DNA of 64,000 nt, taken from positions 1 to 64,000 of IMG/VR virus record IMGVR_UViG_3300025141_000036. One strand, given 5' to 3'. Under the pieces are notes generated by a model. That model was not told the origin of the DNA and searched no databases. It saw nothing but the letters and a program-made list of their open reading frames with translations. This DNA comes from a virus. Of this stretch, positions 1-39,119 are shown piece after piece. Position numbers and translations under genes: made by a program. How positions within the stretch are numbered: the first letter of the stretch is position 1; every line of letters begins with the position of its first letter.

Positions 1-693
1 TGCTGGTTCTAAAGCTGATGTTCCGTAAGGAGCATACTTATCATTCCCTAAAATCCTAAAATGAGCAATTTGCCAGTTTTCAAAGGTCAATCCACCACTG
101 TTCCACTGGAATTGAACATAATTAGGGTTGGTTGGGTCCTCTCCTTCTAATCTCTCGACTTCATCTTGGGGTAAACCGATACAATTTTGAATCCCCGTGT
201 GTTCGTCGATGTCTAAATATAAAAAGAAGTCTCCATATTTACACATTGTTCGTGCCCAACCAAAAAGGTTGGAATTTATGTTTAAAATATCATAATATAA
301 TGAATGAAGGATAAACTTTATCTCTTCGTTAGAACATTTAATGTTTAACATAGGGGTTAAACTAGAATGAGTTGTCATTTCATCTGCATAAATATCTAAA
401 GATGAGGCAATTTCAGGAGTGTATTCCATTTGATCAAAATCAACATAACGCTCTGAACGGTTTCTGTTAGAAATCATATTCAGTGCCATGACATTCATAG
501 GGTTGTATTCAGACTTTTTAAACTGTAATCCTGACGCGGACTGAAATTGTGACGCAAATCTATCTAGTTGCCGCCTTCTCAGTTGTCTTCCTGTTTGAGT
601 TCGTCTCTTTACGATTGGTCCGGAAAAAATCCTCGTCAATGCTTTAAACAGGTTATTCTCGTTGTTGTTGGGGTTTCTATCGTTTTTAGCCAT
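1..693 (-). CDS. Portal protein, T4 gp20-like (3' end runs off the window)
   Basis: Not in the ORF track. Read manually from ATG at 693: MAKNDRNPNNNENNLFKALTRIFSG...RYVDFDQMEYTPEIASSLDIYADE...WARTMCKYGDFFLYL...FENWQIAHFR...PYGTSALEPA. These are gp20-type motifs, and the gene lies directly downstream of terminase. Confidence 0.88.
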   Translation of the reverse strand, partial: MAKNDRNPNNNENNLFKALTRIFSGPIVKRRTQTGRQLRRRQLDRFASQFQSASGLQFKKSEYNPMNVMALNMISNRNRSERYVDFDQMEYTPEIASSLDIYADEMTTHSSLTPMLNIKCSNEEIKFILHSLYYDILNINSNLFGWARTMCKYGDFFLYLDIDEHTGIQNCIGLPQDEVERLEGEDPTNPNYVQFQWNSGGLTFENWQIAHFRILGNDKYAPYGTSALEPA

Positions 694-696
694 TTT

Positions 697-2280
697 TTAT
701 CCTTTGTAAATCCAGAAAAACTCTTTCGCTTTCTCTATTTCTTCTTCGTGTTTCTGGTCAAAAGTCTCTTTAAATCCTTTTTGACCATCAATTCGTGTTT
801 CAAAAGTTGTAGTTGTCCTCATAATACCTCCTATCATGGCCTTTTTGTATTCGATCTCTCTCTGATTTTCTTCCAATGCAGTATCGCGGACCCAGCAAGC
901 AATAGCCAAAGACATGACGAGATCGTCATTGTAAGAGCGCATTGCTTGGGGCTTGCCATTATACCAGATAAAAGTTTTAAATTCATGAAACAGCCTTGTA
1001 GAGTTCAGTTTAATTAGTTTGTTTCTAACGTACTCTTCCAATTTAGCTACAATTAAGGGTCTGGTTTTGGTACTTGTTGTAAACCCCATGACGGCACGGT
1101 CGTTACCTTCAGCCATCACAGCATCAATATATTCATGAGTCGACTTAACCGAATAATAGATCTTGGGATAACCAAGATCATTTAATTTCTCTAAAACTGA
1201 AATTCCAATTCCGTTGTTTTCTACCACTAATAAACAAAATCCATACTCTTTCCCGGATTCGTTTAAAATATTCGCGAAGAGATCTAAGCTTGGCTTCCCT
1301 TGGTATTCAGCGACGACCTCCATTGTATCAAGCCGGATGATGTGAAAAACAGAATAGTCAGCACCGTCTCCTCTGGCGACATCGGCCACAAGTACATATG
1401 AGGCTCCTTCAATATATTTTTCCCAAATCCAAAAATTTCGGTCATAGCCGGTCTTATACAACGGAGCCTTAAGGTTTTCAAATAACCATTGCATATCATC
1501 CGGATGAACAACCGTATCTCCTGACGTATTGAAGTTACATTCCAGTTCTTGAGCAATTTGTCTCCGAGACATATTCTTGGTTTCTTTTAAAAACCAGTCT
1601 TGATCTCTTTCTGGGTGTACATCCCAAGGTAAATTAATCGGGTGAAAATCGTTCTCTTCTGCATCTGCATCAACGTATGTCTTGTGAAACCAGTTTCCTA
1701 CCCCATTAGGGGTCGACAAGGCTATACAACGGCCTCCTGTTGACAGAGTAGGGTAAAGACCGGTCCACAGGTCGGCGAGGCCGTCAACGTGTGCTGCTTC
1801 GTCTATAACGAGCAGTGATAACGCTTCAGAACGACCGGCATCTCCAGAAGTGGTTCCGGCTTTGATCTGAGACCCGTTTGATAATTCAAATGAAGTCTTA
1901 TTGTCCGTGATGATCTTTGAGATCTTAATCCAATCCGGAAGGTGCTTCATGATTGCTTTTACTTTTCTTACTAAGTTGGCCGCAGTCCCAAATTTGGTTG
2001 CGATCACAAGAATGTTCTTGTCTCGGTGGAAAAGCATAAACCAGACAATGTACCCCGCTGAGATTGTGGAGATACCAAGTTGTCTGGCTTTAAGTATAAT
2101 ATTAAATCGATAATCATTAAAGTCCTTGAGTAGGTCTTTCTGATAATCGAAGGTTTTAAAAGGAATGAGTCCCCTAAGCGGATGTGAAATTAGACAATAG
2201 TTATCAATGAAGAATTGTGGATCCTTCCCGCATTTCACAATCTCCTTAACAATTTCTTGCTTGGAAAGTTTAAAAGCCAT
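697..2280 (-). CDS. terL: Terminase large subunit, T4 gp17-like
   Basis: KARQLGIST (Walker A), LLVIDEAA (Walker B), STPNG coupling motif, RNase H nuclease ADVARG...DYS and NDDLVMS. Confidence 0.96.
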   Translation of the reverse strand: MAFKLSKQEIVKEIVKCGKDPQFFIDNYCLISHPLRGLIPFKTFDYQKDLLKDFNDYRFNIILKARQLGISTISAGYIVWFMLFHRDKNILVIATKFGTAANLVRKVKAIMKHLPDWIKISKIITDNKTSFELSNGSQIKAGTTSGDAGRSEALSLLVIDEAAHVDGLADLWTGLYPTLSTGGRCIALSTPNGVGNWFHKTYVDADAEENDFHPINLPWDVHPERDQDWFLKETKNMSRRQIAQELECNFNTSGDTVVHPDDMQWLFENLKAPLYKTGYDRNFWIWEKYIEGASYVLVADVARGDGADYSVFHIIRLDTMEVVAEYQGKPSLDLFANILNESGKEYGFCLLVVENNGIGISVLEKLNDLGYPKIYYSVKSTHEYIDAVMAEGNDRAVMGFTTSTKTRPLIVAKLEEYVRNKLIKLNSTRLFHEFKTFIWYNGKPQAMRSYNDDLVMSLAIACWVRDTALEENQREIEYKKAMIGGIMRTTTTFETRIDGQKGFKETFDQKHEEEIEKAKEFFWIYKG

Positions 2281-5317: not shown

Positions 5318-5542
5318 TTAAATTTCTCCGTAGTAACGCTTGCCGTTAATTTCGACAGCGTCTTCATAGCCATAATCACCGGGCTTTACTTCCCAAAATT
5401 CTGCGTCTTCGATGGAACCACCGTCGGGCACGAGTTCTCTTTTAACCATGTCTGCGAAGATTACTTCCTTTGCTTCTTGAGGAACCTCTGATTTCATTAT
5501 TTTTGCTATCATTCTTTTAAGCATTTCTTCAGTTATTCGCAT
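5318..5542 (-). CDS. Small protein with degenerate leader (MRITEEMLKRMIAKIMKSE...)
   Basis: Leader-like N-terminus; sits in the array; GAGGG SD. Confidence 0.62.
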   Translation of the reverse strand: MRITEEMLKRMIAKIMKSEVPQEAKEVIFADMVKRELVPDGGSIEDAEFWEVKPGDYGYEDAVEINGKRYYGEI

Positions 5543-5936
5543 CGATTTCCCTCACGGCATAATATGTCCCCAGTGATGTTCCTGTCGCAAGCAAAAAGCC
5601 TCCGAAGAAAGCCCACATGGTTTTGTTTGGCTTCATTTCTTTCCGGAGCGTTGCAATTTCGGTATCGCGAATCTCCAGTAGAGTTGTATTTTTTGCGGTT
5701 TCTGTTTCCAACTCTGCTTTTAAATAGTCTAATTCCAGTTGTAATTCCGCTTTTGTTGTAGCAATTGCTAATGATTTTTGGATCTCGCACTGCTCAACGG
5801 ACATCTCACGACCAGCAATAATGTTGGCCACCGCCTCATCATTCATTAGACGGCCGTCAAAGGGTGCTACGTCGCCTTCTTCAAGGTGAACCATCAAAGG
5901 CTCTGCTAACGCTGTAGAAAGCAAGAATAGGATCAT
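5529..5936 (-). CDS. Exported/membrane protein: short signal peptide, coiled coil, C-terminal TM helix (possible spanin-like)
   Basis: MILFLLSTALA|EP signal-like start; heptad region LELDYLKAELETETAKNTTLL; hydrophobic MWAFFGGFLLATGTSLGTYYAV. Confidence 0.6.
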   Translation of the reverse strand: MILFLLSTALAEPLMVHLEEGDVAPFDGRLMNDEAVANIIAGREMSVEQCEIQKSLAIATTKAELQLELDYLKAELETETAKNTTLLEIRDTEIATLRKEMKPNKTMWAFFGGFLLATGTSLGTYYAVREIDANN

Positions 5937-6532
5937 TACGCCTCTTCCTGTTGATAGTGACTTTTAACAAGTGCAACAATCTCTTCTGCTGTGGCTAGTG
6001 GCCAACCTTGAGATTCATAACGCTTAAATTCGTCCTCGATCCACTTAATCGATTCATCGGTTACTCCGGTCTTGGGAGAATCTCCGGTCCTTGGTGCTCG
6101 GTCTTGATAGGCCTGGGCGACAGTTTTGGGATCACGATACAAGCAAATCTTTTCTGCGTGTTCTGGAAACTTAAAGGGCATCCTATAGTCAATCCACGCA
6201 ATTCCAACAAGAAACATGTCTTGCTCTGCATGGTCAATTATAAAATCATTAATCCCACTATTCATTTTAGGTGTAGCTGCTTTCTTGAGAGCCATAACGG
6301 TTTTGCTGTTTTCATCTCTTTCATCCTCGGGCACCTCATTCCAATTGGGGGTTGCAGCCTCAACTGCCGGAATGTAGTCTATATCCTGAATTATAAGGTT
6401 GGGAGCATTTAATGCTTTCACTTTATCCATCAAATAACTTTTACCAACCGCCGGTGGTCCGGCAATAACCCAAAGTTTATTGTTTCCTTGTTCTTCTAGA
6501 AACCTATTCCAATTTTCCATTATAAGTTTCAT
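5936..6532 (-). CDS. P-loop kinase (NMP/AAA_33-like) with second-family leader MKLIMENWNRFLEE
   Basis: WVIAGPPAVGKS Walker A followed by IIQDID. Confidence 0.7.
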   Translation of the reverse strand: MKLIMENWNRFLEEQGNNKLWVIAGPPAVGKSYLMDKVKALNAPNLIIQDIDYIPAVEAATPNWNEVPEDERDENSKTVMALKKAATPKMNSGINDFIIDHAEQDMFLVGIAWIDYRMPFKFPEHAEKICLYRDPKTVAQAYQDRAPRTGDSPKTGVTDESIKWIEDEFKRYESQGWPLATAEEIVALVKSHYQQEEA

Positions 6533-6933
6533 GGCTTATCCTTTGGATCCATAACAAGGATTCCAAATTCATCGGCGAGGATGCGATCAATTGCTTCTGG
6601 GTTGTCTTTGTTTTCTTCGACAAGCCTTCGCACTCTCTCTGCTTTTATCAATTCAGCATGGTCGCTAGACTCCATAGCTGTTTTGTTTGCAATCTCTAAA
6701 GCTCGTTTGTATTTAATGTTGGCTTCGGTTTGCATCTCTGTTTTCTTTTGGGAGGATCCTTCAATCGCATCGATCTCTTTCTTATAAAGTTCTCGAGACA
6801 TTTGTAATTGAGTTTGAAGGGCTCTGACCTTCTTACCTCCAAGAGCGTAAGCCAAAACAATAGCGCCTCCGATAACCAGAAATCTCCAGTTATGGAAGCA
6901 CCATAGTTTTATTTTAGCCCACTTAAGCCTCAC
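6529..6933 (-). CDS. Single-TM protein with coiled coil (possible i-spanin-like)
   Basis: FLVIGGAIVLAYALG TM followed by a long charged helical region; directly downstream of a holin-like gene. Confidence 0.5.
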   Translation of the reverse strand: MRLKWAKIKLWCFHNWRFLVIGGAIVLAYALGGKKVRALQTQLQMSRELYKKEIDAIEGSSQKKTEMQTEANIKYKRALEIANKTAMESSDHAELIKAERVRRLVEENKDNPEAIDRILADEFGILVMDPKDKP

Positions 6934-7373: not shown

Positions 7374-10300
7374 TAGATTTTAACCTTTGCATAGCCATCT
7401 ACTTTTTGAATGTCAATTGTCATGTCGACAATGTCTTTGAGGGATTCGAGATGGGAAATAAGTAGAACCGTTTTGAATTGTCCTTTGATCATCTGCAGGA
7501 GTCTAATAAACCCTTCCATATGCTCTTCGTCCAATGCTGTTGCTGGCTCGTCAAGGATAAATAGTTCGCTTTTCGGTAAATTGGTTACTGAAATTAAGGC
7601 TAAACGTATAGCCATTGAAGCAATTGTCTTCTCTGCTCCGGAGCCCATCGACAACGGTCGAGGATCATATTTGGGGTGTTTAATATAAATTTCTAATTTA
7701 TCTCCAACATTATCAAAGAAAACCTCAAAGTTAACAAGGGTATTAAGAATGTTAGAAATCTCTGAATTAATGATAGGGAGCATAGATTTAATTACTTGAT
7801 AAGAAACACCGTTGGCATGCATGGATTGAATGAATAAATCATAGGCAATATAATCTTTCTCTGCATCTTCGATCTGTCTAATTTTTTCTTTTGCCTCATC
7901 TATCTGTCGGCGGGTTGCTCCTTCTTCTGACATAAGACTTAGCACTTTCTTATTACACAAATCTGTGTCTTTTTCTTTCTTTATTATTGTGCTTTTAATA
8001 GCAGTGAGGTCTCTCTGCAAGGACTCGAGATTTTCGTAAGCCTCCTGGTTTTCATAGTAGTGACTAATCTTTGCTTCGATCTCTTGGATCTCCTTTGACG
8101 CAAGAGCCTTCTTACTCTCGTTTGCCTCGTTTTGCGCTTTAGTCTTTTGTATCTTCGATTCATTTGTTTTTACCTCTCTCATTTTTAAACTGTAATCAGT
8201 CAGTTCAGCTTTGATGTAAGTGATGTTAATAGCGCCTTTTTTCTCTGCTGTCAATTCTAGATCATACTCAAAACCCTTAAGGGCTCTTTGGGATTCTTGG
8301 ATTAGAGTCTTTGCTTCCTCTGCTTCCTTAACGAACTGGTTGTTGGAGCAATATTGACACTCCGGATCATATTCGTGGTCATGCAACAAGTCAATTTTGT
8401 TTTGATAATTGACTATCTCCATCTTAGTTGAACGAATATTCCTTTCTATAATTGAAATATCCTTTACAAGATCCTTGTGTTTTTCAACTTGGGACTCTCT
8501 AGAGTCAAGATCAAAACCCTCAATAAAGCCTCGTAAACGTGCTTTTAAGGCAACCAATTTCTTCAGGCGACTCTCACCATTAATTAAAGACTCGGAGGCT
8601 GTGGATAAGCTATTCTGCTTATTTAATAGTTCATCTTTCAAATCATCTATATCAAGCCAATCTGCTCCAACGTTGTTTAGTTGATCTTGAATTATTTTTT
8701 CTTCTTCTTGTAATTCTTTGGTTCTTGCTGTGTGTTTTTTGCAAAGAACAGTTTGGCACTCAACCTCTTCTTTAATCTCAATCAGAGCCTCTCGGCTCCA
8801 CTGAAGTTTTTTTCTCCAATCGGTTGAATTGAGATGCTTGATTACCCCTTTCATTTCAGCTGAATCTTTCTTTGCTAGTTTATGCTTCGCTTCAAACATC
8901 TTGAGATCTAGGAACTTTGCAAGAATTTCTTTACGCTTTGTAGAGCCCTCATTGATGAACCCGAAAGCATCTGTCTGAGATGCCATCGAAGTCAGCATGA
9001 AGTCATTAAAAGTTCCGAAGGTTTTTTGAATGTTGGAATCCGTTTCGTTTCGGGTGGTTCCGTTTTTACTTTCGTAGTGCTCACCTAGGGCATAGCGTGA
9101 AAAATCGAGTTCCGTTTTAGCTTCGTTGGTTTTAACACCTTTTAGGGTTTTTTCGTATTTTTCAAGATTTCTAGTAATCGTGTAGGAATCGTCGCCGACG
9201 CCGATCTCGAGTTGACACTTAGATTTTTGTTTATTTTGATTAATAATGTGGACATTCTTTCTTTCTCCTTTTGACGTTGCATTAAACAACCCAAACAAGG
9301 CAGCATCTATTATGCTTGATTTACCTGAGTAATTTTTTCCAAAGATTCCAACAAGACCGTTCAGTTTATCAAAATCAATTTCATTCTTTTCGCCGTAGTT
9401 AAATAGATTGTTCCACTTCATTTTACGCAGTTTCCATACAATATTCCTAGAAACATCTTCAGAGCCTTCTATTTGTTTGGAAAACTTTCTATTTAACTCC
9501 AGAACTTTGTCGAGAACCTCGGTTGTAATTTCCTTATCGGACAAAAAAACTTTTATATATTTCTCCTGTGTGTTGGGGTCTCGCATATTTATTCTCTTAC
9601 CGTCGTTATCAACAACAGCCTTAGAAGAATATCCTGCTTTGTTAACAAAATTAACAGAATGAGGATTCCATTTTATATTAGCATAATCGCAAGCTCTTCT
9701 TAATTTGACGAGTGGTAGATTATAATTTGATACCAATCTAAGTCTGGCATTTTTAGGTACATCTACTTTTGGTAGAGTTCCGTCTTGATTAATCTCAACG
9801 GTCACAAATGGCCGGGGCGACATAAATAACCTCTTCTCAACGTTGAAATTGTCTTTGTCTCGAATATTCCAGAGAAGATAACCTTTAAATAAAGATTCTC
9901 CAAAGTTCTGCTGAACTGTAGAGCCGGCATACCAAACGCGCTGATCCATATCTAAATATTGAGTTCTATGAATATCTCCAAGCATGGCGAAGTCAAAGTC
10001 TTTAAAAACATTGATGTCGTCCTCTCCGTTTTCTAGAGACCAACCATCATTGATTTGACATCCCATAATCGCCCCATGGTAAAGCGCAATGTTTACCTTA
10101 GATTGATCTGAGGGAGAGACCCAATTGTCCCGGTCAAACACCGAGAGGACATTCAGGCAGACCGAGTCAGTTAATTGGGTCTCTCCAGAGTTCTTTAATA
10201 AATGTAAGTTTGGATGCTTTAGTGCCTCAATAATTGGGGTTATAGCATCTTGACGATTCTCATTCTTAAGGTTGCCATCGTGGTTTCCTAGGATGATATA

Positions 10301-10522
10301 AGTCGGCGCGATATCTGCTAGGTTCTTTAAAAATTCTGATGTTAGCTCAAAATACTCAGGAGATAACTGTGTCTTTGTATGCGCCATATCTCCAGTGTGG
10401 ATAATATAGTCAGGACAATCTTGCTGCAGTCTATCGTAGATGTTTTTAAATACAATCCTATATTCTTCGTGATATTTTAAATTTCTTATGTGAGTGTCGC
10501 TAATGTGTGCAAAAGTAGTCAT
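7373..10522 (-). CDS. Fused Mre11/SbcD nuclease - Rad50/SbcC ATPase (T4 gp47-gp46 equivalent)
   Basis: Phosphoesterase motifs HISDTH, HTGD, GNHD, LGDIH. ABC motifs GKNYSGKSS, Q-loop, coiled coil with CQYC zinc hook, GSGAE signature, ILDEP, ISH. Confidence 0.93.
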   Translation of the reverse strand: MTTFAHISDTHIRNLKYHEEYRIVFKNIYDRLQQDCPDYIIHTGDMAHTKTQLSPEYFELTSEFLKNLADIAPTYIILGNHDGNLKNENRQDAITPIIEALKHPNLHLLKNSGETQLTDSVCLNVLSVFDRDNWVSPSDQSKVNIALYHGAIMGCQINDGWSLENGEDDINVFKDFDFAMLGDIHRTQYLDMDQRVWYAGSTVQQNFGESLFKGYLLWNIRDKDNFNVEKRLFMSPRPFVTVEINQDGTLPKVDVPKNARLRLVSNYNLPLVKLRRACDYANIKWNPHSVNFVNKAGYSSKAVVDNDGKRINMRDPNTQEKYIKVFLSDKEITTEVLDKVLELNRKFSKQIEGSEDVSRNIVWKLRKMKWNNLFNYGEKNEIDFDKLNGLVGIFGKNYSGKSSIIDAALFGLFNATSKGERKNVHIINQNKQKSKCQLEIGVGDDSYTITRNLEKYEKTLKGVKTNEAKTELDFSRYALGEHYESKNGTTRNETDSNIQKTFGTFNDFMLTSMASQTDAFGFINEGSTKRKEILAKFLDLKMFEAKHKLAKKDSAEMKGVIKHLNSTDWRKKLQWSREALIEIKEEVECQTVLCKKHTARTKELQEEEKIIQDQLNNVGADWLDIDDLKDELLNKQNSLSTASESLINGESRLKKLVALKARLRGFIEGFDLDSRESQVEKHKDLVKDISIIERNIRSTKMEIVNYQNKIDLLHDHEYDPECQYCSNNQFVKEAEEAKTLIQESQRALKGFEYDLELTAEKKGAINITYIKAELTDYSLKMREVKTNESKIQKTKAQNEANESKKALASKEIQEIEAKISHYYENQEAYENLESLQRDLTAIKSTIIKKEKDTDLCNKKVLSLMSEEGATRRQIDEAKEKIRQIEDAEKDYIAYDLFIQSMHANGVSYQVIKSMLPIINSEISNILNTLVNFEVFFDNVGDKLEIYIKHPKYDPRPLSMGSGAEKTIASMAIRLALISVTNLPKSELFILDEPATALDEEHMEGFIRLLQMIKGQFKTVLLISHLESLKDIVDMTIDIQKVDGYAKVKI

Positions 10523-10532
10523 GAGTCCTCCA

Positions 10533-10745
10533 TTACTTTCTTACTATAATATAACCCATATTGTATAGGTTGTCAAGTGTGAAATCTAATTTATAAAAAA
10601 TTAAAACCTCACAAACTATGCTTTTCATATAAGCCGAGTTGCCCGTTATAATTCTCATTTCAAGACCCCAGTGTTCATTGATAAAAATATGCAAAGCCTC
10701 CTCTACTTCCCAATGACGCAAGCCATGTAAGTCAAGCGTCTTCAT
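10533..10745 (-). CDS. Stand-alone Smr (MutS2 C-terminal) domain protein
   Basis: TLDLHG and RIITGNS motifs in a 70-aa protein. Confidence 0.8.
   Translation of the reverse strand: MKTLDLHGLRHWEVEEALHIFINEHWGLEMRIITGNSAYMKSIVCEVLIFYKLDFTLDNLYNMGYIIVRK
10548..10576 (-). promoter_or_regulatory. Sigma70-type promoter for Mre11-Rad50, embedded in the 3' end of the Smr gene
   Basis: TTGACA-17 nt-TATATT, followed by GGAGG SD before the ATG at 10522. Confidence 0.72.
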
Positions 10746-11592
10746 CTTTAAGGTCCTGCAGGATCAAGGGAACTTGAGCCTTCGAAGTCTTAAGAATTTT
10801 CAGGTAAGATTTAATAATTTTCTCATATTCCTCTTTGGAAGTATATTTTTTAAGGTAATAATGTATCGACATAAAATTATATAAATCCTCCCTAGTAAAT
10901 TTACCAAACAGCTGCGAGATCAAGCGGATGGCTTCTTCCGGTGATGTTGCTACAAAATTTTGAGTTTGTTTATCTTTTATGCCGTGTAGGTGAGAAAAAG
11001 TATAGCCTTTTGCGGAGAGCATTGCCACCATTAATTGTGTCCGATGCATTCCTTTAAGGTGTCCGGACTCGCCTGAATGGTAAGCAAATATTAACCAGGG
11101 AAGGTCACCTATCATCCAATCAATTTGAACATAACTTTCTCTTTGGCCAAAATAATCATATTGAGGAAACATTGAAAAAAGGTTACCCGTGGTTGTTTTT
11201 TTATTAGCCACATGGATCATCCCCTCTGTACTTATCGGGTGTGCTAGCAGTGTTAAGAAAGCCTTCAATTTACACATTTCATCAGTACTTGTTCTCGCTC
11301 TTGACCTTATATTTTCATAAAGAACCTGCCATTCATTATGACACACCCTATATTCACTAAGCTCCTCAGCGTTATACGGGGCGGCTTCAAATAAGTGTTT
11401 AAAATCCAAAGCCAAGTCCATATCGCCCGAAACCGGCTTTTTACCGACGCTACCAACAGGATAAAAGTTCTTAAACACATGCGCCTTTTCTGGAAAGATA
11501 AATCCTAAATGCTCTATATACTTTTTCAATGTTGGTCTAATGTTTTCGCGAACAATTGGACTCGCGTAGTCCTTGAATATATTACCGCCCAT
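10732..11592 (-). CDS. Pol-beta superfamily nucleotidyltransferase-like protein
   Basis: MGGNIF start, VGSVGKKPVSGDMDLAL (hG[S]...DxD) and a third Asp in VQIDWM. Confidence 0.68.
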   Translation of the reverse strand: MGGNIFKDYASPIVRENIRPTLKKYIEHLGFIFPEKAHVFKNFYPVGSVGKKPVSGDMDLALDFKHLFEAAPYNAEELSEYRVCHNEWQVLYENIRSRARTSTDEMCKLKAFLTLLAHPISTEGMIHVANKKTTTGNLFSMFPQYDYFGQRESYVQIDWMIGDLPWLIFAYHSGESGHLKGMHRTQLMVAMLSAKGYTFSHLHGIKDKQTQNFVATSPEEAIRLISQLFGKFTREDLYNFMSIHYYLKKYTSKEEYEKIIKSYLKILKTSKAQVPLILQDLKDEDA

Positions 11593-11899
11593 TGGTGCCT
11601 CCTTCTTGTGCTGTTATGAATATTTCCTCTATTTCTATACAATTTTCTTCTTGAAGTATTAAACTATACCACCAGCATCCGCCTTCATGATACATTTCTT
11701 GCTCCACATAAGAATCGTTAAGCAACAAAACAGAAACAGTCAAAGAGTCGAATTCATTACACACCCCTGCTGTTATTTCAATTTCGGTGTGACTCGGGTA
11801 ATCACAACAAGACCACTCATAAGCCTCTGTTGGTATCTCTATGTGAGATGTTTCTTGAGTTGGTACGTTTCCGCAACCTAGTAATAAATATAATAACAT
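11582..11899 (-). CDS. Putative lipoprotein
   Basis: MLLYLLLG|C lipobox; acidic and Cys-rich body; GGAGG SD. Confidence 0.6.
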   Translation of the reverse strand: MLLYLLLGCGNVPTQETSHIEIPTEAYEWSCCDYPSHTEIEITAGVCNEFDSLTVSVLLLNDSYVEQEMYHEGGCWWYSLILQEENCIEIEEIFITAQEGGTNGR

Positions 11900-12957: not shown

Positions 12958-12985
12958 AATATAACTGGTTGAGAAGATTTGTCAA
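12958..12985 (-). promoter_or_regulatory. Sigma70-type promoter for primase
   Basis: TTGACA-16 nt-TATATT(ATAAT), then GAGAGG SD. Confidence 0.65.
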
Positions 12986-13524
12986 GAAAAAATCTTTTTT
13001 ATTTCTTCTTCATTGACATGATCTGGTATAAATTTATCAATTGGTTTCCCTGCAGCGAGGGCTTCTCTGAACTCTGTCGCTGAAACAAAGTCTTCCTGTT
13101 CGTAAGAATGTTGGATCTCAACGATGTTCGCAAAGGATTTAAAGTAACCCAAGAACCCTGCTTGGTATCCTGTGTCTTTTGACGACATCCCAAGAGAGAT
13201 TTGATTTTCCGTTTTGTCGTAATTTTCCTCAGCCCAATCAAACACATCAGCAAAAGGGTTCGTGTAGTGGCCGTTTTTGCCCTTTCTGACGCTTGCGCGT
13301 TGATAGATGACCTTTGGGTTATCCAAGATGCCGTAAAGCCTTAAAACGGCTTCTGCTTGCTCTATGGAGACTGCAAAGTCATCGCCAACTTTACGCTGAC
13401 GTTCTCCGCAGAAAATTCGAACCTCAGAAACTTCTGGGTTGTTAATATAGTGCATAAAGAATTTGTAGTGCCCTACATGGGGTGGCTTAAAGCCGCCGGG
13501 TATAAGTACAGTAATCATGTCCAT
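12982..13524 (-). CDS. HIGH-superfamily nucleotidyltransferase (cytidyltransferase-like)
   Basis: PGGFKPPHVGH and VSATEFREAL. Start reassigned to 13524 (GGAGG SD and promoter). Confidence 0.82.
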   Translation of the reverse strand: MDMITVLIPGGFKPPHVGHYKFFMHYINNPEVSEVRIFCGERQRKVGDDFAVSIEQAEAVLRLYGILDNPKVIYQRASVRKGKNGHYTNPFADVFDWAEENYDKTENQISLGMSSKDTGYQAGFLGYFKSFANIVEIQHSYEQEDFVSATEFREALAAGKPIDKFIPDHVNEEEIKKIFS

Positions 13525-13582: not shown

Positions 13583-14086
13583 CTAAAAGTGAGACAAAGC
13601 GACGACAATTGAATCGGCCATGTCATCTGTGCCGGGTTTTGGGTTTCCGTGTCGAGTTAGTTCAAAAATAAAATCTTCTGGATATCTTGCCGAGACCCAT
13701 TCAATAATTTTTTTCTTTGTGTTTTCGCCTCTTTTAATTTTGATGCCGCACTTAGACCTGGCTGATCTTGACGGAACGAGAACAGGAACCATATGAAAGC
13801 AGTGATACGCCATAAGCGAAATCATGCCGTTGAAGCGTTGCAATTTACTCATTGTTCCTGCCGTGGTTTTTCCACCAGAGAACATCGTGAAAGGCTCCTC
13901 TATTCGAACTTCCGTTACCTTATACTTGCGATCTATATCCTTTAAGGTATCGACAAAGAATTTCCAAGCCCTTTCCTCTAAGGGTTCTTTTTTAAATTTT
14001 ACAAAGCCGAAGACCAAAAGGTTTTGTTGATCATCAACAACACAGTATCCAATTTTGGATGTGCTTACATCTATTCCTAAAATCAT
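13583..14086 (-). CDS. ruvC: RuvC-like Holliday junction resolvase
   Basis: MILGIDVS, RIEEP and DDMADS catalytic motifs. Start reassigned to 14086. Confidence 0.88.
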   Translation of the reverse strand: MILGIDVSTSKIGYCVVDDQQNLLVFGFVKFKKEPLEERAWKFFVDTLKDIDRKYKVTEVRIEEPFTMFSGGKTTAGTMSKLQRFNGMISLMAYHCFHMVPVLVPSRSARSKCGIKIKRGENTKKKIIEWVSARYPEDFIFELTRHGNPKPGTDDMADSIVVALSHF

Positions 14087-14092
14087 ATACAT

Positions 14093-14121
14093 ATTATAAC
14101 ACATCTAAAGGTATGTGTCAA
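14093..14121 (-). promoter_or_regulatory. Perfect-consensus sigma70 promoter, probably giving a leaderless ruvC mRNA
   Basis: TTGACA-17 nt-TATAAT with extended TG; ATG 6 nt after the -10 box; no SD. Confidence 0.8.
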
Positions 14122-14137
14122 GTTTTATTTTATCTTA

Positions 14138-14665
14138 TTAGTAGTTGGACCTGTAATTGATATTTATAGTTGTCCCATGTTGGCCCCAATAATCAAGTAA
14201 TTCTTGGTCTCCACTATATTTTTCAATATGTTTTTCAAGTAGTTTTAATAGATCAGCATCTCTACCTTCGAGCTTCTCAAGGGCACTGGGGTCTCCATCG
14301 CTGGCCTTGTCTAAGGCTGCTGAGACTTTGGCCCATTCCATATTCATATCATGTTTGTCTTCTAATGGCTTTGAATCAATATACATATCAAGCATTCCCA
14401 AAAGAACATGATATGGGTTATATTCCACTTCTGCTTGTTGGGTTGTCTCTTCGCCACTAGGAGGGGCAGTATCGTCTGCTTGTGCAGTATTTGGGGCCCC
14501 CATCATTCCTAAAGCTAATGCGCCGCCGGCTAAAGCTTTTTGTAGCCACCCTTCTAGAAGCTTTTCTTCTTCGGTTATATCAGAATTAAATTCATAAAGG
14601 ACAGTTGGGTCTTGAGACTCCACAATAAATTTACGCCAGTTTTCCATAATTAATTTTTGCTTCAT
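14138..14665 (-). CDS. Leader-bearing protein (MKQKLIMENWRKFIVE) with an internal signal-peptide-like segment
   Basis: Second-family leader; LLE|GWLQKALAGGALALGMMGAPNTAQA|DD. Confidence 0.7.
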   Translation of the reverse strand: MKQKLIMENWRKFIVESQDPTVLYEFNSDITEEEKLLEGWLQKALAGGALALGMMGAPNTAQADDTAPPSGEETTQQAEVEYNPYHVLLGMLDMYIDSKPLEDKHDMNMEWAKVSAALDKASDGDPSALEKLEGRDADLLKLLEKHIEKYSGDQELLDYWGQHGTTININYRSNY

Positions 14666-14683
14666 GATATAATCCTTTTTATT

Positions 14684-14692
14684 ATAAATAGT
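14684..14692 (-). promoter_or_regulatory. Putative late-promoter motif ACTATTTAT
   Basis: The same CTATTTA core recurs in the rare intergenic gaps ahead of virion genes (18008-18016, 39111-39119). Confidence 0.45.
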
Positions 14693-18007: not shown

Positions 18008-18016
18008 GTAAATAGA
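18008..18016 (-). promoter_or_regulatory. Putative late-promoter motif TCTATTTAC
   Basis: CTATTTA core in the gap before the ATG at 17982; GGAG SD downstream. Confidence 0.4.
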
Positions 18017-39110: not shown

Positions 39111-39119
39111 ATAAATAGT
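39111..39119 (-). promoter_or_regulatory. Putative late-promoter motif ACTATTTAT
   Basis: Identical to 14684-14692; in the gap before the gp6 start. Confidence 0.45.

Follow-up and report, generated by a model that had tools for sequence, protein, structure and literature searches.

The DNA analysed here (the window) comprises the first 64,000 nucleotides of a 112,401-bp linear IMG/VR contig, which has a GC content of 40% and is estimated to be 62% complete. On its minus strand, a gene for a protein of 175 amino acids closes a long minus-strand structural block and is followed by a RuvC-like resolvase gene (13583-14104), a position that corresponds to the boundary between the tail module and the replication genes and lies outside the head module. 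The landmarks of the locus are as follows:

1-2280, minus strand: T4-type large terminase gene (697-2280) and a truncated T4 gp20-type portal gene (1-693), the latter cut by the contig end
2294-7373, minus strand: array of genes, directly upstream of the terminase gene, for small unrelated proteins that carry a type-A leader (core IIKEELE)
5936-6532, minus strand: P-loop kinase-like protein with a type-B leader, the same as in the 175-amino-acid protein
14138-14665, minus strand: whole coding sequence of the 175-amino-acid protein, ATG start, stop codon (14138-14140) counted in
14666-14691, minus strand: upstream region of this gene, with a CTATTTAT motif (14684-14691) and AAGGA (14673-14677)

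The AAGGA element forms a Shine-Dalgarno sequence 8 nt before the ATG. The motif further upstream, CTATTTAT or CTATTTA(T), occurs over the whole contig in 24 copies on the minus strand versus 3 on the plus strand, and 6 copies are placed 26-64 nt upstream of gene starts, those of late structural genes among them (examples of the motif in the window are 14684-14691, 18008-18015 and 39111-39118). It is possibly a late promoter and, as such a candidate, recalls the T4 late TATAAATA box. In TARA contig L001, which encodes a close homologue, the order of structural gene, 175-amino-acid-protein gene and RuvC gene is kept; two further leader-bearing genes follow the RuvC gene there (2044-2918), one of them with a ParB-like D-G-N-H-R motif.

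An earlier note on this locus had described a two-address protein, sent first to the capsid and then to the host envelope, and had conceded that a true start inside the reading frame would undo this proposal. Such a start can be excluded: between Met7 and Met54 the reading frame offers just two start codons, Val15 and Leu45, neither of which lies close enough to the junction at residue 38 to skip the pro-region, and the N-terminal 38 residues are conserved at the protein level in homologues. The encoded protein consists of five parts:

14618-14665, minus strand: residues 1-16, type-B leader (core LIMENWR, end I-V-E16), a putative capsid-targeting propeptide, the same leader being present on ~90 unrelated proteins
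14552-14617, minus strand: residues 17-38, acidic spacer (net charge -6.5) whose end L-L-E38 is the putative final prohead-protease site
14477-14551, minus strand: residues 39-63, signal-peptide-like segment with n-region G-W-L-Q-K, an h-region of 14 Ala/Gly/Leu/Met residues and c-region P58...A-Q-A63
14420-14476, minus strand: residues 64-82, acidic P/T/E/Q-rich linker with a T-T-Q-Q-A motif common across the family (pLDDT <50)
14141-14419, minus strand: residues 83-175, acidic helical-bundle domain (AlphaFold2 with 24 sequences, pLDDT 82-91 over residues 83-165)

The leader is basic and amphipathic, and the segment 39-63 contains one Lys and is directly followed by D-D. The elements listed in the earlier note (leader, acidic LLE spacer, segment with basic n-region, hydrophobic h-region and A-x-A, DD, P/T/E linker and helical domain) are thus all present, and they are conserved in ~28 relatives retrieved by HMM search of 1.8 billion proteins, nearly all of which keep the layout. 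Twenty-three of the relatives came from the profile search of 1.8 billion representative proteins and a few extra ones from a word-index search; there are four close homologues with 64-77% identity. Across the family, the order is leader, acidic spacer of 0-130 amino acids, hydrophobic-x-Glu-Gly/Ala junction, basic residues, a short Ala/Gly-rich core and P..A-x-A, after which a T/P/S and T-T-Q-Q linker leads into the helical domain.

In the 24-sequence family alignment the mean column identity is 19%, and the best-conserved columns are E16, E38, P58, A61 and A63. Around the leader end and the junction, we counted a hydrophobic residue at position 14 in 22/24 sequences, E16 in 22/24, a hydrophobic residue at position 36 in 23/24, E38 in 22/22 and G39 in 18/22; within the signal-like segment the corresponding counts are 20/23 for G56, 22/23 for P58, 19/22 for A61 and 17/20 for A63. 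These columns stand out against the low mean identity, and the conserved five-part layout is not a matter of chance.

Searching other phages for this architecture, as the earlier note had proposed, recovered the layout of leader, junction, hydrophobic segment and A-x-A not only in the ~28 relatives but also on unrelated cargo domains, the same N-terminal module being joined to different C-terminal domains in P0021, P0024, P0027 and P0031 and in proteins of L087, L088, L147, L161, L177 and L193. Little was gained from word-index searches with residues 1-66 only or with the 24-sequence alignment; a scan of viral contigs with close-family patterns returned no relative, a metagenome scan returned only L001, and tblastn against 50,697 phage records found no family member in cultured phages. 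The family is absent from two relatives that we examined in full and gave no match in two more, and the gene is accordingly classed as accessory. Two of the leader-bearing proteins have additional features. P0003 (255 aa, on a 34.5-kb contig) is an orthologue with an extra Lys/Cys-rich C-terminal extension of ~80 amino acids. P0031 (306 aa) has the same leader and an LLEEG junction, followed by ~100 residues of glycine-zipper-like Gly/Ala repeats and more hydrophobic segments, and is a candidate membrane-active cargo by its sequence.

To characterize the helical domain, the protein and its C-terminal domain were compared with Pfam, PHROGs, the 50,697 phage records (tblastn), the ESM Atlas and PDB sequence profiles, none of which gave anything usable, and with PDB and BFVD by Foldseek and more widely by VIA-align, again with no usable match (best Z 4.6). 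The domain is strongly acidic. In two family members, P0020 and P0022, the leader is joined straight to the helical domain and the signal-like segment is missing; a strictly periplasmic role is therefore disfavoured, and this arrangement argues against a strict need of the domain for export. The same two proteins speak for the alternative that the protein is solely an internal component of the head or core, its hydrophobic stretch serving protein-protein contact in the prohead and never meeting a membrane, and the acidic domain does resemble the T4 core proteins gp67 and gp68. We nevertheless regard this explanation as improbable, given that a positive n-region, a helix-breaking Pro and A-x-A with an acidic flank make up a specific signature of signal-peptidase substrates, and that cargo domains of at least five unrelated kinds carry these conserved features.

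We then considered the distribution of possible prohead-protease sites. Of the six [LI]-x-E sites in the 175-amino-acid protein, five fall within residues 1-38, I-V-E16 and L-L-E38 among them, so that both the leader and the spacer end as in T4-type cargo. The pro-regions of the family contain 102 [LI]-x-E sites, or 9.0 per 100 residues, against 38.8 +/- 4.9 sites in shuffles that preserve composition, whereas the mature parts are depleted, with 0.43 per 100 (17 observed versus 34.2 +/- 5.2), a density ~20x higher before the junction than after it; the family sequences are related and not independent, which inflates these motif counts. Ordinary ORFs of the same genomes, used as a control, contain 1.21 per 100. 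In leader-bearing proteins in general, the hydrophobic-x-E-G-hydrophobic junction is ~12-fold enriched within residues 15-100, and helices of a cationic amphipathic or Gly-rich hydrophobic kind often come next.

The leader itself behaves as a modular tag. Using a degenerate DNA pattern for its core, we found the type-B leader in at least 120 marine viral contigs of IMG/VR, where it heads ~90 distinct cargo proteins that are unrelated to one another; by motif inspection, the cargo includes nucleotidyltransferases and ParB-like, GNAT-like, C5-methyltransferase-like and M23-like proteins. The type-A leader is present on 8 small unrelated ORFs adjoining the terminase gene, and the two types are interchangeable inside the family, as illustrated by the type-A leader of the orthologue P0003. 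Orthologous nucleotidyltransferases exist with and without a leader, the boundary lying exactly after hydrophobic-x-Glu (...FVAE/GGN... versus M/GGN...). Two minus-strand genes of the window, at 10732-11592 and 12982-13524, encode leaderless enzymes, one a nucleotidyltransferase of the pol-beta type and one cytidylyltransferase-like, and in leader-bearing orthologues of these two enzymes (G003 9658-10701; L088 2395-3006; L138) a type-B leader is inserted exactly before the shared mature N-terminus. The leader is thus, as for T4-type capsid-targeted cargo, common to unrelated proteins of one phage lineage. A literature search with the leader string returned nothing relevant. A role of the leader as a radical-SAM/SPASM recognition tag was also considered and rejected, PF04055 being absent from the contig and from four of the five complete leader-bearing relatives.

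Leader loss is common on the enzymes. Among ~30 family or bipartite members, in contrast, none has a plain N-terminal signal in which the leader is missing, and the reverse case, in which the signal is lost and the leader retained, is represented by two family members. This asymmetry favours an order of events in which the capsid comes first, and so does the presence of an acidic pro-region and an invariant junction Glu, which would be without purpose in plain secretion.

As to the segment exposed by a cut at the junction, the distance from the junction to A-x-A has a median of 25 amino acids (range 19-40); 20/27 members have an n-region of net positive charge, and in 23/27 the 15 residues after A-x-A are net negative. 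The best 11-residue Kyte-Doolittle window has a median of 1.82. Over 19 residues the median is 1.16, and the 1.6 threshold of a stable single-pass anchor is reached in 1/27 members. This hydrophobicity fits the h-region of a signal peptide, and not a stable anchor, as judged from sequence. By heuristics, the features of a Sec/signal peptidase I substrate are all found, namely a positive n-region, an h-region of 7-15 residues, a polar c-region and small residues at -3/-1. Gram-negative Sec signals share this n/h/c organisation with Ala at -3/-1, a helix-breaker at about -6 and an acidic mature N-terminus. The segment is, however, not N-terminal in the translated protein: it begins at position 39 here and is preceded by 19-143 residues in relatives, and would become N-terminal only after a cut at the junction. 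Type IV prepilin-like, lipoprotein and Tat signals were rejected (a G/F-x-x-x-E motif, Cys and a twin Arg are all lacking), and profile matches to organelle bipartite precursors over the signal-like region were weak and non-significant.

The completeness of the n/h/c organisation and of the A-x-A site is also the main argument for export from the producing cell. According to this serious, albeit on balance unlikely, alternative, the whole 63-residue N-terminus would be a long signal peptide or a cleavable signal-anchor, from which signal peptidase would free the domain in the periplasm of the producer, perhaps to time lysis or to exclude superinfection, the leader having another role or none. 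The basic residues directly before the h-region predict an N-in orientation, the gene may have its own late promoter, and in P0012, P0014, P0016, P0019 and P0028 the pro-region amounts to just 19-21 amino acids, with the hydrophobic core beginning at about residue 25. Conserved N-terminal extensions on signal peptides do exist, as in the ESPR of autotransporters; unlike these, the extension found here is net acidic (the median pro-region charge in the family is -4), measures 19-143 amino acids and corresponds to a tag also borne by cytoplasmic-type enzymes. Such export, for which a plain signal would do, gives no reason for the retention of leader, acidic charge and invariant hydrophobic-x-Glu-Gly junction, and leaves unexplained why not one of the ~30 members is leaderless and why the pro-region reaches 125-143 amino acids in P0006 and P0010.

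In topology, with a cytoplasmic N-terminus of short length, a single segment of weak hydrophobicity and a helical domain at the C-terminus, and in its presumed late expression, the gene product would further fit a lysis protein, whether a class-III holin-like protein, an antiholin with a domain of the signal-arrest-release type or an i-spanin. We consider this very improbable, since the N-terminus is a generic leader also present on enzymes, no embedded same-strand ORF of at least 40 amino acids is available for an o-spanin, better candidates are located at 6529-6933 and 5529-5936, and Pfam and PHROGs gave no holin, spanin or antiholin match, the last point being weak evidence as lysis families are diverse. 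These lysis candidates of spanin/holin type (minus strand, within the leader-gene array) are kept in the relative G002 (92297-93452); one has an N-terminal transmembrane segment and a coiled coil, and the other a signal-like N-terminus, a coiled coil and a C-terminal hydrophobic segment. Elsewhere in the window, 11582-11899 (minus strand) encodes a 105-amino-acid Cys-rich protein with a lipobox-like L-L-L-G-C start, a probable phage lipoprotein conserved in G002 (87614-87916).

The placement of the leaders relative to the head genes was analyzed in related contigs. The prohead protease gene is absent from the 62%-complete contig studied here, in which the portal gene is cut at the contig end, and in relatives it sits just past the position of this end. 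Peptidase_S77 (PF03420) was detected in all 10 large contigs checked, with E-values of ~1e-29 to 1e-35 (5/5 complete relatives of ~185 kb and 5/5 contigs picked by their leaders), and in 1/5 fragments that were 34-45% complete. A complete relative has leader-bearing genes as immediate neighbours of the protease gene on either side and also directly upstream of the terminase gene; in the complete relative G002 the S77 protease gene is located at 101418-102026. The nearest cultured relatives by terminase (~45% identity) are Flavobacterium phage immuto and Microcystis phage Mel-JY01. The head module of the former is classic T4, with portal, prohead protease and gp23-type capsid protein, and several hypothetical proteins encoded near its portal and protease genes bear type-A-like leaders (L089, NC_055915 107035-132480).

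The capsid targeting sequence (CTS) on T4 internal proteins was reportedly described by Mullaney and Black in 1996. It is carried by IPI, IPII, IPIII and Alt and is removed by the prohead protease gp21 at L/I-x-E (PMC9026906, PMC3012670). The published 10-residue CTS and the N-termini of T4 gp22, gp24 and gp21 in the T4 record have the same M-x-K...hydrophobic-x-E form as the leaders. Like the T4 CTS, the leader is short, N-terminal, common to unrelated proteins and terminated by hydrophobic-x-Glu, and it occurs in a lineage whose portal, terminase, major capsid protein and S77 protease are of T4 type and in which the cargo is similarly diverse and of fast turnover. Unlike the T4 CTS (10 aa, MKTYQEFIAE), it measures 14-17 amino acids, and behind it come an acidic spacer and another conserved Glu site; moreover, the cargo begins with a secretion-signal-like segment, whereas we know of no T4 internal protein that has one. 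The capsid protein of the lineage (G002, 112359 onward), when compared with T4 gp23 (L232 4946-6511), has kept a gp23-like propeptide (LLNKW...LLEG), and the last [LI]-x-E ahead of its conserved core is followed by Ala. This propeptide and the type-B leader show equal hydrophobic spacing around Trp, and LLEG is identical to the junction. The type-B leader may mimic the scaffold-binding helix of the capsid protein.

Taken together, the modularity of the leader, its hydrophobic-x-Glu end and its confinement to a lineage whose portal, terminase and S77 prohead protease are of T4 type give circumstantial support to its assignment as a T4-type capsid-targeting propeptide. What is established is the conserved architecture, the modularity of the leader and the restriction to phages with a T4-type head module. 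As the best explanation, which we advance tentatively and hold at somewhat below even chances, we propose that the 175-amino-acid gene encodes a pro-protein with a bipartite presequence, which would be packaged, trimmed, ejected and then directed by its signal in the next host. In a first step, the late-made protein would be bound into the scaffolding core of the prohead by its T4-CTS-like leader (residues 1-16). A protease of the T4 gp21 type (S77) would then cut at the clustered [LI]-x-E sites, the last cut falling after E38, and would thereby remove the leader together with the acidic spacer, which had kept the hydrophobic segment soluble and export-incompetent. The trimmed protein, beginning at G39, would be stored in the head and exit with the DNA. 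In the last and weakest step, the exposed 25-residue n/h/c segment would engage the inner membrane of the new host, most likely via Sec, and signal peptidase I would cut after A63 and free the helical domain on the periplasmic side. We know of no injected protein for which Sec export after translation is described.

Several observations weigh against this sequence of events: P0020 and P0022 do without the signal-like segment, the strongly acidic domain is unusual for a DNA-associated internal protein, the gene is accessory and lies outside the head module, and the protease gene is not on the contig. The two-address reading of the earlier note accordingly holds in part, in that the leader is CTS-like, the junction Glu is invariant and the segment has all sequence features of a Sec signal, while packaging, cleavage at E38, ejection and export in the next host are predicted steps.

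The earlier note had also stated that no comparable phage targeting logic was described, a statement that does not stand, as a related case is already in print. For gp47 of the Salmonella giant phage SPN3US, mass spectrometry shows that a propeptide is removed by the prohead protease, and the mature N-terminus is a predicted transmembrane helix for which the authors suggest an interaction with the host membrane (PMC5694885). This ejection protein shares with the 175-amino-acid protein a lengthy N-terminal propeptide together with a Glu-specific prohead protease, by which a membrane-type segment becomes N-terminal (protease and processing both predicted here). The two are unrelated in sequence, the processing of gp47 is known from mass spectrometry and that of our protein is predicted from sequence, and the gp47 segment is read as a transmembrane helix, whereas the one described here is short and weakly hydrophobic with a conserved P..A-x-A end.

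By the gp47 precedent, the protein might also be packaged and trimmed in the same way and its Ala/Gly-rich end inserted directly into the host membrane, with neither Sec nor a signal-peptidase cut, acting as an ejection protein of glycine-zipper-like, pore-forming or anchoring character. Right after the same junction, P0031, a 241-aa protein of L087 and proteins of L225 and L228 do have segments of cationic amphipathic or Gly-zipper type. Direct insertion of this kind appears clearly unlikely for the present family, as it would leave the conserved P58, A61 and A63 and the 25-aa length without purpose, and as 26/27 members are under the usual 19-residue hydrophobicity threshold for membrane spans. 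With respect to gp47, the new elements of the signal-directed pro-protein are that the segment, once exposed, is by its sequence a complete, conserved signal of the cleavable type, that the arrangement is modular across cargo domains and that the lineage is of wide marine distribution.

The closest mechanistic analogy, offered as an analogy only, is the bipartite transit peptide of thylakoid-lumen proteins. Presequences of the thylakoid lumen consist of a stromal transit peptide followed by a lumenal signal ending in A-x-A, and mitochondrial intermembrane-space proteins such as cytochromes b2 and c1 likewise have bipartite presequences. In these systems, as proposed for the phage protein, two signals are arranged in series and the first protease exposes a bacterial-type signal cut at A-x-A; organelle presequences, however, serve eukaryotic import, whereas here the capsid would act as the first compartment and another cell would be the site of the second step. 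Apart from these organelle bipartite transit peptides, we know of no other two-step targeting logic of this type.

In its most far-reaching form, which we consider rather doubtful, the capsid would be the first stop of a two-step sorting route in which the Sec system and signal peptidase of the next host export a virion-delivered protein before phage gene expression, the same module being reused on several unrelated cargo domains throughout a marine T4-like lineage of wide distribution. Should the sequential model hold, proteins would reach the periplasm or inner membrane of the new host before any transcription, where they might seal the entry site, exclude superinfecting phages at once or counter envelope-based defences. 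Moreover, this abundant uncultured marine T4-like lineage, with genomes of ~185 kb, carries putative modular capsid-targeting tags on scores of enzymes, and these tags point to an injected proteome that may be much larger than that of T4.
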